DNA of 64,000 bases from a virus: positions 1 to 64,000 of the IMG/VR virus record IMGVR_UViG_3300033148_006706. One strand, given 5' to 3'. Made by a program: the position numbers and the translations under genes. Shown here piece after piece: positions 1,045 to 14,219 of the stretch; position 1 is the stretch's first letter; each line of letters begins with the position of its first letter. The notes beneath the pieces were generated by a model. That model saw only the letters and a program-made list of their open reading frames with translations, was not told the origin of the DNA and did no database searches.

Positions 1045-2031
1045 ATGTTTAAAAAATGGAAAGATATTGAAAATAGTTGTAAAGAGAAAATGATTAAAAA
1101 ATTTTTTAATACGTATACTTTTGAAGATGAAATTTTTCAAGTGACAGAAAAAATTCATGGTAGTAATCTGTCAATTATCTTTTACCCTGACGGGCATAGA
1201 GAATATGCTAGACGTAGCGGAGTATTAAAAGATGAAAACTTTTATAATTATAAAGAAGCCTTTAAAAAAGAAAACAATCCTGACCTTTATATTTTTCTTA
1301 ATGCGATTCAACAATTTGCAATAAAAAATGGACAGATAATACAACTTATAGGAGAGCTTTTTGGTAAAGGAGTACAAAAGGGAATTTATTATGGAGAGGG
1401 AATTTATTGGCGCTGGTTCGGTACATACGCAAACGAAGAATTTCTAGCAGTAGAAGATGAGGAGCTTTTGTTGAGTAAAATCGAGGATTTAGGATTTGAT
1501 GTGTATCCGGATAAAATTAGAGTGCCGCTTCTCTGTTTATTTTCTAATATAAGTTCAGCTAAAGATTTTATAGATCAAGTAAAACAAATAGACTTGGAGA
1601 AAGATAGTTTATTAACTCCTCCAGGATATAACAAAAAGAACATAGCTGAAGGTGTTGTTATACGACCTTATAATCGAAATTATGCGATTAATCATCAATG
1701 GTTTCTTTTTAAATATAAGCATCCAAAATTTGAGGAAATTATAATGGGAAAAAATAAAGCAAAGAAGCCTAAAGTTAAGGTTTCAGAGAAAGTACAGAAT
1801 ATAGCTCAAGAAATGTGTAGATATGTAAATGAGAACAGGACAGAGAGCCTCTTTTCAAAAGAAGGAGAAATACAAGATGAAAAACAGATAGGAGAATATA
1901 TCAAATTATATTTAGAAGATATATATAAAGATTGCCTTTTAGATTTAAAAGATTTAAAAAAAGAAGAAAAAAAGTATATTAATAAACAGATGACAAACTT
2001 GATAGTAAAGGAATTGAGAAGATGTTTATAG
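1045..2031 (+). CDS. RNA ligase, Rnl2 family
   Basis: TEKIHGSN (motif I), GELFG, EGVVIR, FKYK, C-terminal Rnl2-like helical domain. Confidence 0.85.
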   Translation: MFKKWKDIENSCKEKMIKKFFNTYTFEDEIFQVTEKIHGSNLSIIFYPDGHREYARRSGVLKDENFYNYKEAFKKENNPDLYIFLNAIQQFAIKNGQIIQLIGELFGKGVQKGIYYGEGIYWRWFGTYANEEFLAVEDEELLLSKIEDLGFDVYPDKIRVPLLCLFSNISSAKDFIDQVKQIDLEKDSLLTPPGYNKKNIAEGVVIRPYNRNYAINHQWFLFKYKHPKFEEIIMGKNKAKKPKVKVSEKVQNIAQEMCRYVNENRTESLFSKEGEIQDEKQIGEYIKLYLEDIYKDCLLDLKDLKKEEKKYINKQMTNLIVKELRRCL

Positions 2032-4058
2032 AAAATCTTACGATTGAGAACTATGGCGCATTAAAAAATGCGATGTTAGAATTTCAAAAAGGATTCAATA
2101 TTCTTAGTGGTTCTAATGGGGCAGGGAAGTCACATATTATTAGAGCATTAGCATATCTCATTCTTAATCACAATGAAGGTAAAATTGAAGATGATTTAAA
2201 TTGGCATAGTAATTCTTTTACTATCCAGACTAAGATTAAATATGGTGGGAAAGATTTTATAATTAAGAATCATTATGATGGAAAAAATGTATTGAAAGAG
2301 TTAATAATTTCCTCTAATGGAAATAAACAGCAGTACAGCGGAAATAAAGATGTAGTGGACGTACTTTCACAATATTTTGATCCTACTTATTCTAAACCGG
2401 CTCTTATAGCTTTTCAGGGTGAAATGGATGTAGTAACAGCAACTCCTGCTAAAAGACGAGAGAGTTTAAAAAATATTTACGATTTGAATTTTCAAAAAGA
2501 AATTCAGCAATTAGAAGATGAAAAAACGTCATTAGAATTAAAAGTACAGGAATTGGAAAAGCAGATAGCAATTCTTGAAAGTAAAAGCTATAATTTATAT
2601 AAAAAAGAAAGACTCCCTTTTAATGAGAATACATATAAAGAAAAAGAAACAGATGTTAAAAAATTACAAAGTAAGAAACAATCTTTAGAAAATGAGATAA
2701 ACGATTTTGAATCAAAATTACAAAATGTTAATCGATTTAAAAGTTTTTATGAAAGTAAAGAAAGAGAAATTAAAGAATTATTGGACAAGAAAGATATTTT
2801 GCAAAGTAAGATAAACGAATTAAAAAATGTTATAACTAATCCCAATTATAATGTAGTAGATAAATTAAAAAAACAAATAGATGATATTAAACTCGAAAGG
2901 ATTAAAGAGGATTTCGATATAAATGTTCTTAATTCTAAAAAAGAAAAACTTTATGAAGAAAAAAATGAGCTTAAGAATATAAAAAAGAATATAGAATTGG
3001 TGGAAATGGGTAAGTGCCCGACTTGTGGAGCGGATTTTTCTAATGTCGATATAAATGATTATAAGAGACGTTATGAAGAAAAAGAAGAAATAGTAAGCGC
3101 CATTAATAAAGAAATAGAGGCTATTGAGAAAGATTATAAAACTTGGCAGGAGAAAAAGAAAAAAAACGATAGAAAGAAGGAATTAAAAAATAATTTAATT
3201 AATCAACTTAAATATGAAGAAAAGAAAATAGAAGATGTTATTAACAGTAGTAAAGAAAGTTTAGAAGAAAGAAGTAATGAATTAGTTAATGTTAATAAAA
3301 AAATAGAAGATTATGCCGAGGAAAAGGAAGTTTTAAAAAAAGATTTACAAAAGGAGCTTGATCAACTACCAGATGAAGCAGATATAGAATCTAAGAATAA
3401 GCAAATTGAGGATATAAAAAACAAAATTGATTTAATAAGCCGGGAAATTGAAGAATATAGAACAGTTCTTAATAAGAATAAATGGATAGAGGAAGAAAAT
3501 AAAAAGATACTGAAACAAAAAGATGAGGATGAAAAATTAAAGCAAAAGATTAATAAAGATCATGATCATTTATTGAAAGAAGTAAACGAATATAAAAAAT
3601 CTGTAGATATTCTAAAAAAGGATTTTCCTAATTATATAATAAACGAACTTAAAAGCGATATAGAAACAGGAATGAATGAAATACTGGATAAAGCATATAA
3701 CGGAAGATATCATGTACAAATAAAAGAAAATCGCAGTGGACTTTCTATTGTATATGGAAACGATAAAGAAATAAAACTTGCAAGCGGAGCAGAAAAAAAT
3801 TTATTTACCATAGGATTTAAGAATGCATTTACGAGGCTGGCAGGATTAAAGGTACTTTTGTTGGATGAATGCGATAACTTCATGGATGAAGATATAGCGA
3901 AAAAGACCTTTGATGTTCTTCAGAATCTTATAGAACAAGAAGCACTTAATCAGGTTATTCTTATTACTCATAAGCAGAGTGTTAAAGAATTACTGGAGGG
4001 TGATTATAGAGCTAGAGTTTTTGAAGTAAAAAATGGTGGGGCATTTTTACTTGAATGA
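2022..4058 (+). CDS. SbcC/Rad50-like ATPase (T4 gp46-like)
   Basis: GSNGAGKS Walker A, long coiled coil with CPTCG zinc hook, ASGAE signature, LLLDE Walker B, ITH. Confidence 0.92.
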   Translation: MFIENLTIENYGALKNAMLEFQKGFNILSGSNGAGKSHIIRALAYLILNHNEGKIEDDLNWHSNSFTIQTKIKYGGKDFIIKNHYDGKNVLKELIISSNGNKQQYSGNKDVVDVLSQYFDPTYSKPALIAFQGEMDVVTATPAKRRESLKNIYDLNFQKEIQQLEDEKTSLELKVQELEKQIAILESKSYNLYKKERLPFNENTYKEKETDVKKLQSKKQSLENEINDFESKLQNVNRFKSFYESKEREIKELLDKKDILQSKINELKNVITNPNYNVVDKLKKQIDDIKLERIKEDFDINVLNSKKEKLYEEKNELKNIKKNIELVEMGKCPTCGADFSNVDINDYKRRYEEKEEIVSAINKEIEAIEKDYKTWQEKKKKNDRKKELKNNLINQLKYEEKKIEDVINSSKESLEERSNELVNVNKKIEDYAEEKEVLKKDLQKELDQLPDEADIESKNKQIEDIKNKIDLISREIEEYRTVLNKNKWIEEENKKILKQKDEDEKLKQKINKDHDHLLKEVNEYKKSVDILKKDFPNYIINELKSDIETGMNEILDKAYNGRYHVQIKENRSGLSIVYGNDKEIKLASGAEKNLFTIGFKNAFTRLAGLKVLLLDECDNFMDEDIAKKTFDVLQNLIEQEALNQVILITHKQSVKELLEGDYRARVFEVKNGGAFLLE

Positions 4059-4194
4059 CAAATTTTTAAAATAACGATTCCGATAATACTCTTATGCTAT
4101 ATAGTGAATTTTTTAAAAAAAGTATATTTTTTTATTAAAAATTTGGATAAAGAAATATATATTAGACATATAAACGAATAAATTAAAGGAAGAA

Positions 4195-5118
4195 ATGGTG
4201 AATATTAAAAAGCAAAAGTTGATAATGTTGAAAGGGCTCCCCGCATCTGGAAAAACTACTTGGGCAAAGGAACAAATTTTAAAAGCCAATGGATCAATAA
4301 AAAGAGTTAATAAAGACGATTTAAGAAAGATGATCGATATATCTCAATGGAGTAAAGAAAAAGAATTACATATCCTAAGGATTAGAGACACGATTATATA
4401 TTATTACCTCAGTAACGGGTATTCAGTAATTGTAGATGATACAAATTTGAATCCATATCATGAACAACGACTCAGACGAATTGTAAGCGAGTATAATAGT
4501 AATGTCAGAGAGCATTCTGTTGAGTTTGAAGTTAATGATTCTTTCTGTGATGTTGATTATCGAGAATGTATTAAAAGAGATTTGATAAGAGGAAAAGAAG
4601 CGGTGGGAGAAAAGGTTATCATTAATATGTATAGAAAATATTTACATAAGGCACCCGTTCTTATTCCTTATAAAGTTGAATTACCCGACTGTATTTTAGT
4701 GGATGTTGATTGGACTCTTGCTATTCATGAATACCGTGATCCTTTTGATTATTATAAATGCACAGAAGATAAATTAAATACACCAATTGCATCTTTAATA
4801 AACGATATTCAAAATCGACATTCACTATCGTATACAATGATTGTAACAGGTAGAGAGAATATAAAGTATGAATCGGGAGTAACAGTTTGGGATTTAACAA
4901 GTGAATGGCTTAATAAAAATCATATTCGTTATGATAGAATTTTTATTAGAGAAGAAGGAGATCATAGACCTGATTGGATGGTAAAAAAAGAAATGTTTGA
5001 AAAGCATATTAAGGATAAATATAACGTGTTATATGTTATAGACGACAGAAGGCAAACTATAGACATGTGGCGTAAAGAGGGATTGACAGTACTTGATGTA
5101 GCTGGTCACGATTTTTAA
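4195..5118 (+). CDS. pseT: Polynucleotide 5'-kinase/3'-phosphatase (T4 PseT-like)
   Basis: GLPASGKTT P-loop, DDLR, VDDTN; HAD domain DVDWT, TGR, DDR. Confidence 0.9.
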   Translation: MVNIKKQKLIMLKGLPASGKTTWAKEQILKANGSIKRVNKDDLRKMIDISQWSKEKELHILRIRDTIIYYYLSNGYSVIVDDTNLNPYHEQRLRRIVSEYNSNVREHSVEFEVNDSFCDVDYRECIKRDLIRGKEAVGEKVIINMYRKYLHKAPVLIPYKVELPDCILVDVDWTLAIHEYRDPFDYYKCTEDKLNTPIASLINDIQNRHSLSYTMIVTGRENIKYESGVTVWDLTSEWLNKNHIRYDRIFIREEGDHRPDWMVKKEMFEKHIKDKYNVLYVIDDRRQTIDMWRKEGLTVLDVAGHDF

Positions 5119-5131
5119 ATGAGGAAAAAAA

Positions 5132-6262
5132 ATGAATCTATATTTACAGAATTTTTTAATTGAGCATCCCAACGATTGGAAGGAAATATTAAAAGAAAAA
5201 CCTTATGCATTTAAAGTTATAGAGAAAGACGATTTAGTATTATTTAAATATAATCAGATAGACAGTGATTTTAATATTCCTTTAGTACAGGAGGCACGAG
5301 GAATTGTATTTGATAAAAGCGATTGGAGTGTTATTAAGCACCCTTTCCATAAATTTTTTAACTATGGAGAATCTAACGCAGCCGTTATCGATTGGGGATC
5401 AGCTAGTATACAAGAAAAAATTGATGGCTCTCTTATCGCATGTTATTTTTATAAAAATGAATGGATGATATCGACTAACGGAACTATCGATGCACGAGAT
5501 GCAAGTTTACAGTTTCCCGTTCAATTAAATAAAAAGAAAAAAATAAACTCATTTTACGATCTTGTAGTTTATACACTAGAACAAATGTTTGGACGTGATT
5601 ATATTTTTGGAGTTTTCCAGAATATAGATAAAAAGTCAACGCATCTTTTTGAAATAGCAACCCCAATTAATAGGATAGTTGTCCCCTATAAGGATTTTAA
5701 AATTTATTACTTATGTTCAAAGGTAAATAGTACAGGTATCGAATATTACAGTAAACCATTACTTGATAGATTCCCAATTCCGAAAGTATATTCATTTAAT
5801 TCATTGGAAGATTGTGTTAAAGCAGCTAAAGAATTACAATATGATAGTGAGGGCTATGTAATAGTGGATAAAAACTGGAATCGTATTAAAATTAAGAGTC
5901 CAGCATATATAGCTGCGCATCATTTAAGAGGTGAAGATGTCGTAACAGATAAAAAATTACTCAATCTTATTCTTGCTAATGAAGGGAATGAATTTCTTAC
6001 GTATTTCCCCGAGTTTAAAGATGCCTATAATAATTTATATAATAGACTTTTACAGTTAAAAACAAGAATGGGGGCGGATGCAAAAAAGCTTGAAGAGATG
6101 CAGAAAGGGAATAAATCAAGAAAAGAAATAGCTTTATGGGCTAATAAAGAGTGCGTTATACCTGCGTTTATATTTCAATTGCTTGATAAGAAAATTGAAA
6201 ACATTGATAATTTTATATATAATAAATGTAAAGTAGAAAAACTTTTAGAGTATATAAAATAA
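5132..6262 (+). CDS. RNA ligase 1 (T4 RnlA-like)
   Basis: EARG, KFFN, QEKIDGS, FE, NRIV, EGYV, RIKIK motifs. Confidence 0.88.
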   Translation: MNLYLQNFLIEHPNDWKEILKEKPYAFKVIEKDDLVLFKYNQIDSDFNIPLVQEARGIVFDKSDWSVIKHPFHKFFNYGESNAAVIDWGSASIQEKIDGSLIACYFYKNEWMISTNGTIDARDASLQFPVQLNKKKKINSFYDLVVYTLEQMFGRDYIFGVFQNIDKKSTHLFEIATPINRIVVPYKDFKIYYLCSKVNSTGIEYYSKPLLDRFPIPKVYSFNSLEDCVKAAKELQYDSEGYVIVDKNWNRIKIKSPAYIAAHHLRGEDVVTDKKLLNLILANEGNEFLTYFPEFKDAYNNLYNRLLQLKTRMGADAKKLEEMQKGNKSRKEIALWANKECVIPAFIFQLLDKKIENIDNFIYNKCKVEKLLEYIK

Positions 6263-13830: not shown

Positions 13831-13942
13831 GGGGATGCAATTGGTTCGACTGTTAAAATAACACGGGGAGAGATACGATGCTCTCCCCGTGCTTTAAAAG
13901 ACGACTTTAACTAGGACGAGGGTTCAAGGCCCTCCATCTCCA
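13831..13942 (+). ncRNA. Miniature tmRNA-like RNA (Ala tRNA-like domain, no evident mRNA-like domain)
   Basis: 5' GGGGATG pairs with 3' CATCTCC-A, giving G3.U70. Stemless D-loop ending TTCGAC; GGAC before the T-arm GAGGG-TTCAAGG-CCCTC; helix-2-like GTTAAA/TTTAAC enclosing an 11-bp hairpin. Confidence 0.8.
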
Positions 13943-13958: not shown

Positions 13959-14219
13959 ATGGTGTGTTTAGAGGATAAAGATAAAGATACTGCACTTACA
14001 AAAGTGGCGATAGGATTTACTCAAGCCGGCAATACTTTAGGAACTACTTCAGATATGGAGGAGTTAACATTGGAGGTGGAAAGTCAGTATGGCGATATTT
14101 CTAAGGGGGGACTTTTTTTTGTTCTAAGAACTAATACAGGATGGAGTTTTGATAATATTAACGATATTGAACAAACGATAAGAAAATTATGGAGTAAATT
14201 AAAAAATATAAAAATTTAA
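13959..14219 (+). CDS. Hypothetical protein
   Basis: ORF only. Confidence 0.6.
   Translation: MVCLEDKDKDTALTKVAIGFTQAGNTLGTTSDMEELTLEVESQYGDISKGGLFFVLRTNTGWSFDNINDIEQTIRKLWSKLKNIKI

Follow-up and report, generated by a model that had tools for sequence, protein, structure and literature searches.

A tRNA-like-domain-only tmRNA gene in the replication module of an uncultured 140-kb phage and its syntenic relatives

Genomic context

The window, i.e., the complete stretch of DNA analyzed here, comprises the first 64,000 nucleotides of a phage genome of 139,904 bp (IMG/VR record IMGVR_UViG_3300033148_006706; direct terminal repeats, 32% G+C). Within it, a module of co-oriented replication genes encodes, in this order, a DnaC-like loader, a DnaB helicase and a DUF932 protein, followed, after a short RNA gene, by an 86-aa protein, a YspA/SLOG protein and a metallophosphoesterase. 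The RNA gene (13831..13942, + strand) measures 112 nt up to and including its discriminator A. Directly upstream, the gene encoding the DUF932 family protein (Pfam PF06067; 12965..13822, + strand), which served as our synteny anchor, ends 8 nt before the RNA, and the gene encoding the 86-aa protein (13959..14219, + strand) starts 16 nt past it. No signal above chance was detected for a promoter or terminator belonging to the RNA itself. A homologue of the 86-aa gene (46% identity) directly follows the RNA in one of the relatives described below (L016); since another homologue, in L191, has no RNA upstream, we ruled out this gene as an obligate partner.

The RNA-repair set mentioned in a preliminary description of the sequence was found at 1045-6262 and is of the T4 type; Rnl2 (1045-2031), Pnkp with its kinase and HAD phosphatase domains (4195-5118) and Rnl1 (5132-6262) are encoded. 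A 678-aa AAA_15/SMC-like ATPase (2022-4058) lies between Rnl2 and Pnkp, and a D12 adenine methyltransferase gene (221-1018) is located upstream of the set. Neither SmpB nor RtcB nor any tyrosine or serine recombinase is encoded in the phage genome. A 300-aa open reading frame at genome positions 134121-135023 (L054 1399-2301) weakly resembles nucleotidyltransferases (PolyA_pol head domain, 14 to 15 bits; phrog_1614, E of 1e-6) and strongly matches phrog_4400, a family of unknown function; the likeness was too weak to count it as a CCA-adding enzyme.

Elsewhere, the early region of the genome contains tRNA-like elements without an anticodon, at 112243-112331 and 109854-109871 (both on the - strand), which match the Rfam tmRNA model (RF00023) as T-loop fragments only, at 14 to 16 bits. 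The element at 112243-112331 has no G3.U70 pair and a different discriminator, and these elements form a class apart from the RNA described here. ARAGORN additionally reported one tRNA of undetermined type at 108534-108626 (- strand). A blastn search against cultured phages gave no match, and the only matches of the DnaB protein among cultured phages had at most 24% identity, providing no clue to the host.

Structure of the RNA

The preliminary description, drawn up from the bare sequence, had recognized both tmRNA termini in normal order, and direct reading of 13831-13942 bore this out. All seven pairs of the acceptor stem form between its 5' strand (G1 to G7; 13831..13837) and positions 13935-13941, with a G.U pair at the third position, as had been claimed; the 3' strand, which contributes U70, ends in discriminator A73 (13935..13942). 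The base at 13942 is an A followed by AAAG, so that CCA is not encoded, again as described. Between the acceptor stem and the interior lies a D-loop analogue (13838..13849) containing GG and UUCGA, the latter being invariant in our alignments. That this loop is stemless was correct; a correction to be made is that its GG lies one base nearer to UUCGAC than in canonical tmRNA. The T-arm (13918..13934), whose assignment also held, consists of a 5-bp stem (5/5 pairs) and the 7-nt loop UUCAAGG, a UUCRA-type loop of which the final two bases are unusual. Immediately before it, the GAC of the conserved GGAC motif (13915..13917; invariant G, A and C columns) is the presumed partner of the GAC at 13848-13850. 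In tmRNA, these GAC and GGAC motifs form tandem G.A pairs.

The interior between the two halves of this tRNA-like domain (TLD) counts 64 nt, close to the 60 nt estimated previously, and folds as simple helices only, both of the helices noted earlier (an A/U-rich helix and an 11-bp hairpin) being present. In the first, helix 2a, 13850..13857 and 13906..13914 are joined by 8 pairs that leave one U bulged. The helix is thermodynamically weak in the window copy (pair probability of approximately 0.25 to 0.3) and belongs to one of several near-equal folds. The second is a G+C-rich hairpin (13862..13891) with 11 of 11 standard pairs and an 8-nt loop. The unpaired segment that follows (13892..13905; alignment columns 74 to 85) is homologous to a small hairpin of the relatives, P-B, the stem of which is degenerate here. 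Pseudoknots PK1 to PK4 are absent, as are a single-stranded resume region and a tag frame encoding a protease signal, consistent with the earlier statement that a tag-coding domain is missing.

The folding energy of the strand is -43.7 kcal/mol (z = -4.8 relative to shuffles), and a degenerate TLD pattern matched once in the 64-kb window versus not at all in 100 dinucleotide shuffles. The RNA occurs as a single copy in the genome, which rules out a repeat family within it.

Model searches

RF00023 aligns to 13831-13942 from end to end (model positions 1 to 374) with 44.4 bits and an E value of about 1e-15 to 1e-17, depending on the search. This remains below the gathering cutoff of 47 bits, and Rfam at gathering thresholds reports nothing at the locus. 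The length of the query mattered as well: an Rfam scan of a short region returned a truncated local match of 15 bits only, and the full-model match required a longer source sequence. The full alignment equates the 11-bp hairpin with the distal portion of tmRNA helix 2 and opens a deletion of 274 model positions at the hairpin tip. The anatomy of the RNA is that of a TLD with a helix-2-like stalk, in which an 8-nt loop replaces the pseudoknots and tag frame.

Other detectors were silent. ARAGORN made no call at the RNA, whether run on the window or, in tmRNA mode, on the whole genome, and neither the canonical tRNA model (RF00005; E of 0.1 or better) nor the mitochondrial tmRNA model (RF02544; E of 1 or better) matched anywhere in the genome. 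The proposed tmRNA identity was backed by the general tmRNA model, below its cutoff, and not by ARAGORN or the mitochondrial model. The silence of ARAGORN and RF00005 excludes an ordinary tRNA with D-stem and anticodon arm, a fold that the preliminary description had named as the competing one, and the silence of RF02544 excludes a tmRNA of the mitochondrial type.

A family model built from an alignment of 10 sequences (see below) scored the window copy at 87 bits, as its sole match in the window. The same model found the published RNA of mycobacteriophage DS6A (49 bits; E of 2.5e-9), which ties the mini forms of AT-rich large phages to the DS6A form. By RF00023, the window copy has the lowest score of its group, its relatives scoring 56 to 72 bits. 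Since both ARAGORN and the Rfam cutoff miss the window copy and the DS6A RNA, routine annotation undercounts such genes.

Syntenic relatives

A related-locus search seeded with the upstream DUF932 protein yielded nothing. The protein has many homologues, and the contigs encoding these were inspected for the content of the slot following the DUF932 gene. In L016 (DUF932 identity of 76%), a 123-nt mini-tmRNA is located directly before homologues of the 86-aa gene and the YspA/SLOG (Pfam YAcAr) gene, with six small genes inserted between the DUF932 gene and the RNA. In L017 (51%), a mini-tmRNA of the same length immediately follows the DUF932 gene. Both exceed the Rfam cutoff for RF00023, with 61.6 and 56.1 bits, respectively. 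The slot is occupied by a tRNA-Tyr gene in L019 (52%) and is empty in L020 (56%).

None of these four contigs has a full-length tmRNA in the slot. Because the relatives that do carry a syntenic tmRNA carry mini forms, and none a full-length one, the mini form must be old in this lineage and is not the remnant of a recent deletion, which the preliminary description had named as a possibility. The slot after the DUF932 gene behaves like an exchangeable place for tRNA-like genes.

The tRNA-Tyr replacing the mini-tmRNA after DUF932, and the tRNA clusters slightly downstream in related phages, were seen at L019 3916-4001, L020 2898-3210 and L021 5146-5627. Finally, L016 contains a 105-nt match to the tRNA model (4621-4725; 35.4 bits) that ARAGORN does not call and that may be a tRNA carrying an insertion.

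The wider family

Pattern scans yielded 28 unique mini forms of 102 to 132 nt, including the window copy and the two RNAs found by synteny. The pattern-scan loci included 23 from metagenomes versus 2 from a collection in which 185,579 bacterial and archaeal species are represented by a single genome each. Covariation among these homologues was strong: all 140 stem cells left free by the pattern pair, three or four pair types occur at four of the five pattern-free stem positions, and covariation is seen at acceptor pair 5 (4 pair types), at acceptor pair 6 (3 pair types) and at the three free pairs of the T-stem. In the 10-sequence alignment, 93.4% of the cells of the five-helix structure are paired, compared to 73.3% in shuffles and 49 to 61% with slid partners, and 18 pairs show changes on both sides. 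For helix 2a, such double changes were seen in all five counted pairs. The UUCGA and GAC columns are invariant in both alignments.

Because the patterns had fixed G3.U70, a fair test of this pair is restricted to homologues recovered otherwise. This independent set (n = 11) comprises the two syntenic RNAs, the DS6A RNA and eight RNAs found via an interior motif alone, and all 11 have both G3.U70 and A73, including L057, in which the fourth pair is altered. The model score, the covariation and the synteny thus agree on the identity of the element, and 13831-13942 is confirmed as a genuine phage RNA gene, encoding an alanine-type tmRNA TLD without pseudoknots or a conserved tag frame. With both halves present and covarying, and with no tyrosine or serine recombinase encoded in the genome, an ssrA attachment site (attP) was ruled out.

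Loose scans with the interior motif returned 136 loci, true mini forms accounting for only about a dozen. No flanking gene is shared among the other mini forms. The matches of the first viral pattern scan were rejected as homologues, being mainly tRNA T-loops with a tmRNA 3' fragment behind them. On several viral contigs (L005/L012, L007/L013, L006 and L008-L010), the 60 to 80 nt or so behind a tRNA-like T-arm contain a tmRNA-type 3' end (GGAC, T-arm, ...CUCCA), conceivably a fragment of an attachment site or part of a two-piece tmRNA gene.

A separate observation concerns L041, an E. coli-like locus on a 100-kb metagenome contig (PPYE01046245.1), where ssrA measures only 132 nt (6088-6219). 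It has a SmpB-like open reading frame approximately 140 nt upstream and, approximately 130 nt downstream, a 423-aa open reading frame that is integrase-like by its N-terminal sequence. We take this short ssrA to consist of the 5' portion, as far as the end of the first pseudoknot, fused to the 3' end, with the tag frame and later pseudoknots missing; either a natural deletion or an assembly artifact could explain it.

Possible function

In the reading that we prefer, and to which we give somewhat better than even chances, this TLD-only (CDS-less) tmRNA would be a decoy to which host SmpB and AlaRS are diverted, so that tagging is blocked or bypassed. The G3.U70 pair and A73, retained here, are the marks that AlaRS uses for alanine identity, and the RNA also retains the D-loop region and the start of helix 2, which SmpB contacts in solved complexes with the TLD. 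The RNA would be transcribed together with the replication genes, after which host RNase P would cut its 5' end, and trimming of its 3' end by a tRNA 3'-processing nuclease would be completed by the CCA-adding enzyme; cotranscription and processing are assumed because no promoter or terminator signal exceeds chance. Given the conserved identity marks, host AlaRS would be expected to charge the RNA through G3.U70 and A73, and host SmpB would bind it. With no usable resume codon, trans-translation would not be completed, and the RNA would rival host tmRNA for SmpB, and perhaps also for EF-Tu and for stalled ribosomes. By analogy to DS6A, the result might be less ssrA tagging, and hence less proteolysis, of unfinished proteins during infection.

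The decoy idea agrees with what has been published on the DS6A form, and we infer that it may extend to the window RNA. The statements on DS6A in Hudson, Lau and Williams (2014; PMC4131195) are that such a molecule, chargeable or not, strongly inhibits tmRNA, perhaps via titration of SmpB, and the 2025 tmRNA database paper (PMC11915505) states, where it treats the DS6A-type RNA, that expression in E. coli inhibits the endogenous tmRNA. One might further conjecture that the neighboring tRNA-repair genes suit a phage whose translation is likely to come under attack.

The same structural evidence would serve a second reading, in which the charged RNA, together with SmpB, takes over the nascent chain on stalled ribosomes. 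The peptidyl-RNA would leave either through drop-off and peptidyl-tRNA hydrolase or with the aid of another release factor, so that ribosomes would be freed and phage proteins would gain a single alanine without a degradation tag, as has also been proposed for the frameless tmRNAs of mitochondria. The CDS-less tmRNAs of mitochondria and some plastids, which are conserved along with SmpB and thought to help with incomplete mRNAs (PMC11915505), make such tagless rescue conceivable; however, no mechanism of release is known, and the sole phage-form experiment reported in the DS6A statements of the two papers cited above (PMC4131195 and PMC11915505) shows inhibition of tmRNA and not rescue. We therefore regard this reading as improbable.

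Alternatively, the RNA might serve merely to punctuate the message, its tRNA-like shape being a cut signal by which host RNase P and 3' processing split the transcript, with the excised RNA having no role of its own. The tight fit between two genes on the same strand (8 and 16 nt), the lack of promoter and terminator signals above chance, the tRNA-Tyr in the same slot of L019 and the anticodon-less tRNA mimic in the early region of the same genome would all suit this reading. A cut signal, however, needs neither G3.U70 and A73 nor a tmRNA D-loop nor GAC/GGAC, all of which are invariant in the independent homologues, and the mimic at 112243-112331 indeed does without the pair and has another discriminator. 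As processing is also expected as a by-product of the decoy reading, we give punctuation as the only role little credence.

Divergence of the window copy from its relatives

In the closest relatives, a covarying 6-bp stem (P-A) closes a conserved 23- to 24-nt loop motif (GACG.A..GC.C ... CGAAA). The motif, with a covarying stem around it, is carried by L014, L016, L017, L024, L026, L031, L044, L045, L049, L056-L058, L095, L138, L151, L172 and L177 and, in part, by L055 (DS6A), and recurs within mini-tmRNAs of very different phages. The CGAA of this motif is complementary to UUCG in the D-loop; RNAalifold pairs the two, and no covariation accompanies the pairing. The relatives also have the small P-B hairpin intact (4 bp, loop UAAA, within UUAAAA), and its stem covaries.

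The window copy shares with the 123- to 125-nt mini-tmRNAs (L016, L017, L026, L044, L045 and L056-L058) the same TLD frame, helix 2a and the UUAAAA hairpin, the last of these as a sequence remnant only. It differs from them in the interior: the loop motif is absent, and where they have the 6-bp stem with its 23- to 24-nt motif loop, it has 11 bp closing a loop of 8 nt. Its D-loop GG, in addition, lies one base off the position seen in 9 of the 10 relatives in the alignment. By these comparisons, the window copy is a derived variant, and without the interior motif it could be less active than its relatives.

This raises the question of whether the working 123-nt mini-tmRNA of the lineage has lost its interior motif here and is drifting. 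The window copy is the sole member of its subfamily without the loop motif, and the degenerate P-B, the shifted GG and the lowest model score point in the same direction. All 12 acceptor and T-stem pairs, however, are intact, and 5 of them have both bases changed with respect to the closest relative, L016; the new hairpin, with its 11 bp unbroken, is a perfect helix rather than debris; and the RF00023 score equals that of the DS6A RNA. Decay is hence an unlikely explanation in our view, and the decoy reading remains the one that we prefer for this copy too.

Coding potential of the interior

A frame scan of the interior revealed two frames starting with alanine, of 5 and 7 codons, neither of which has a known tag ending. 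The 7-codon frame is not conserved in L016 or L017. The 5-codon frame (Ala-Leu-Pro-Val-Leu-stop; 13880..13897, + strand), which we consider unlikely to be read as a tag, ends at a stop homologous to the one in the P-B loop of the relatives. An Ala-started frame ending there is present in 9 of the 10 long forms, including the window copy; L169 uses different stop codons. L045, also a long form, is frameshifted, and most of the 104- to 108-nt forms that keep the loop motif lack the frame. The family thus has no conserved tag frame.

If the 5-codon frame were used, the RNA would be a minimal working tmRNA that transfers its alanine, resumes at GCU (13880) and stops at UAA (13895-13897), so that stalled ribosomes would be released with a product bearing a short tail that is no protease signal, and the 123- to 125-nt relatives would do the same via 9-codon frames ending in a helix-5-like hairpin loop. 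We consider this very improbable, open as the frame is and shared as its stop is with the relatives, given that the first codon sits at the loop/stem edge of the G+C-rich 11-bp helix, with no single-stranded run for loading, that the frame is disrupted or missing in the forms just mentioned, that stops are expected by chance in A/U-rich sequence, and that there is no pseudoknot.

Implications

A TLD-only tmRNA would let a phage act on ribosome rescue and protein tagging in its host by means of approximately 110 bases of RNA, without having to encode a protein for it. The published record of such RNAs consists of one mycobacteriophage, and the kind is now also seen in uncultured phages of approximately 140 to 180 kb. 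The mini-tmRNA persists in one genomic neighborhood across deep divergence, down to 51% identity of the neighboring protein, and shares its genome with T4-type tRNA-repair enzymes. Taken together, these findings point to a wider phage toolkit against host defenses directed at translation.

Comparison with known systems

Among cellular RNAs, the obvious reference is bacterial ssrA. The acceptor stem, D-loop analogue, GAC/GGAC motifs, T-arm and helix-2-like stalk of the window copy align to both ends of RF00023, whereas approximately 270 model positions, representing the four pseudoknots, the resume codon region, the tag frame and helix 5, have no counterpart. Frameless organellar tmRNAs, such as those of jakobid and oomycete mitochondria (RF02544), are likewise reduced to the TLD and are thought to act with SmpB without tagging; the CDS-less plastid forms of Mallomonadaceae are even as short as approximately 65 bp (PMC11915505). 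These organellar forms, however, represent a separate reduction in another lineage and work with imported SmpB, whereas the phage must use that of its host. Early-region tRNA mimics and the t-elements of plant mitochondria similarly imitate an acceptor stem and T-arm between genes on the coding strand, but the early-region mimic that we inspected has, unlike the mini-tmRNA, no tmRNA D-loop and no GAC/GGAC in addition to lacking G3.U70.

The closest counterpart is the RNA of mycobacteriophage DS6A (L055 579-658; tmID 11587 of the tmRNA Website), which is unannotated in its own record, was described as "little more than the TLD" (Hudson, Lau and Williams 2014; PMC4131195) and is the form for which PMC4131195 and PMC11915505 both cite Mao et al. 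2009 (RNA Biol 6:355). Like the window copy, it is phage-encoded, is located with replication genes (flanked by gp33 and the gene for DNA polymerase III) and has a complete alanine TLD with G3.U70 and A73 and no CCA, pseudoknots or tag frame; the two also score alike with RF00023, both just below the cutoff (43.2 bits for DS6A versus 44.4 bits). They differ in that the DS6A RNA is 80 nt long, with a 5-bp helix 2 and a 20-nt loop containing part of the motif, whereas the window copy, at 112 nt, has a longer stalk and no motif, and in their hosts and G+C content over the RF00023 match (69% versus 48%). In summary, the kind is already known through DS6A, and the window copy is a further member of it, from an uncultured 140-kb phage; what is new is the long persistence documented by synteny, an interior reduced to a bare helix-2-like stalk, and the position of both copies below the Rfam cutoff.
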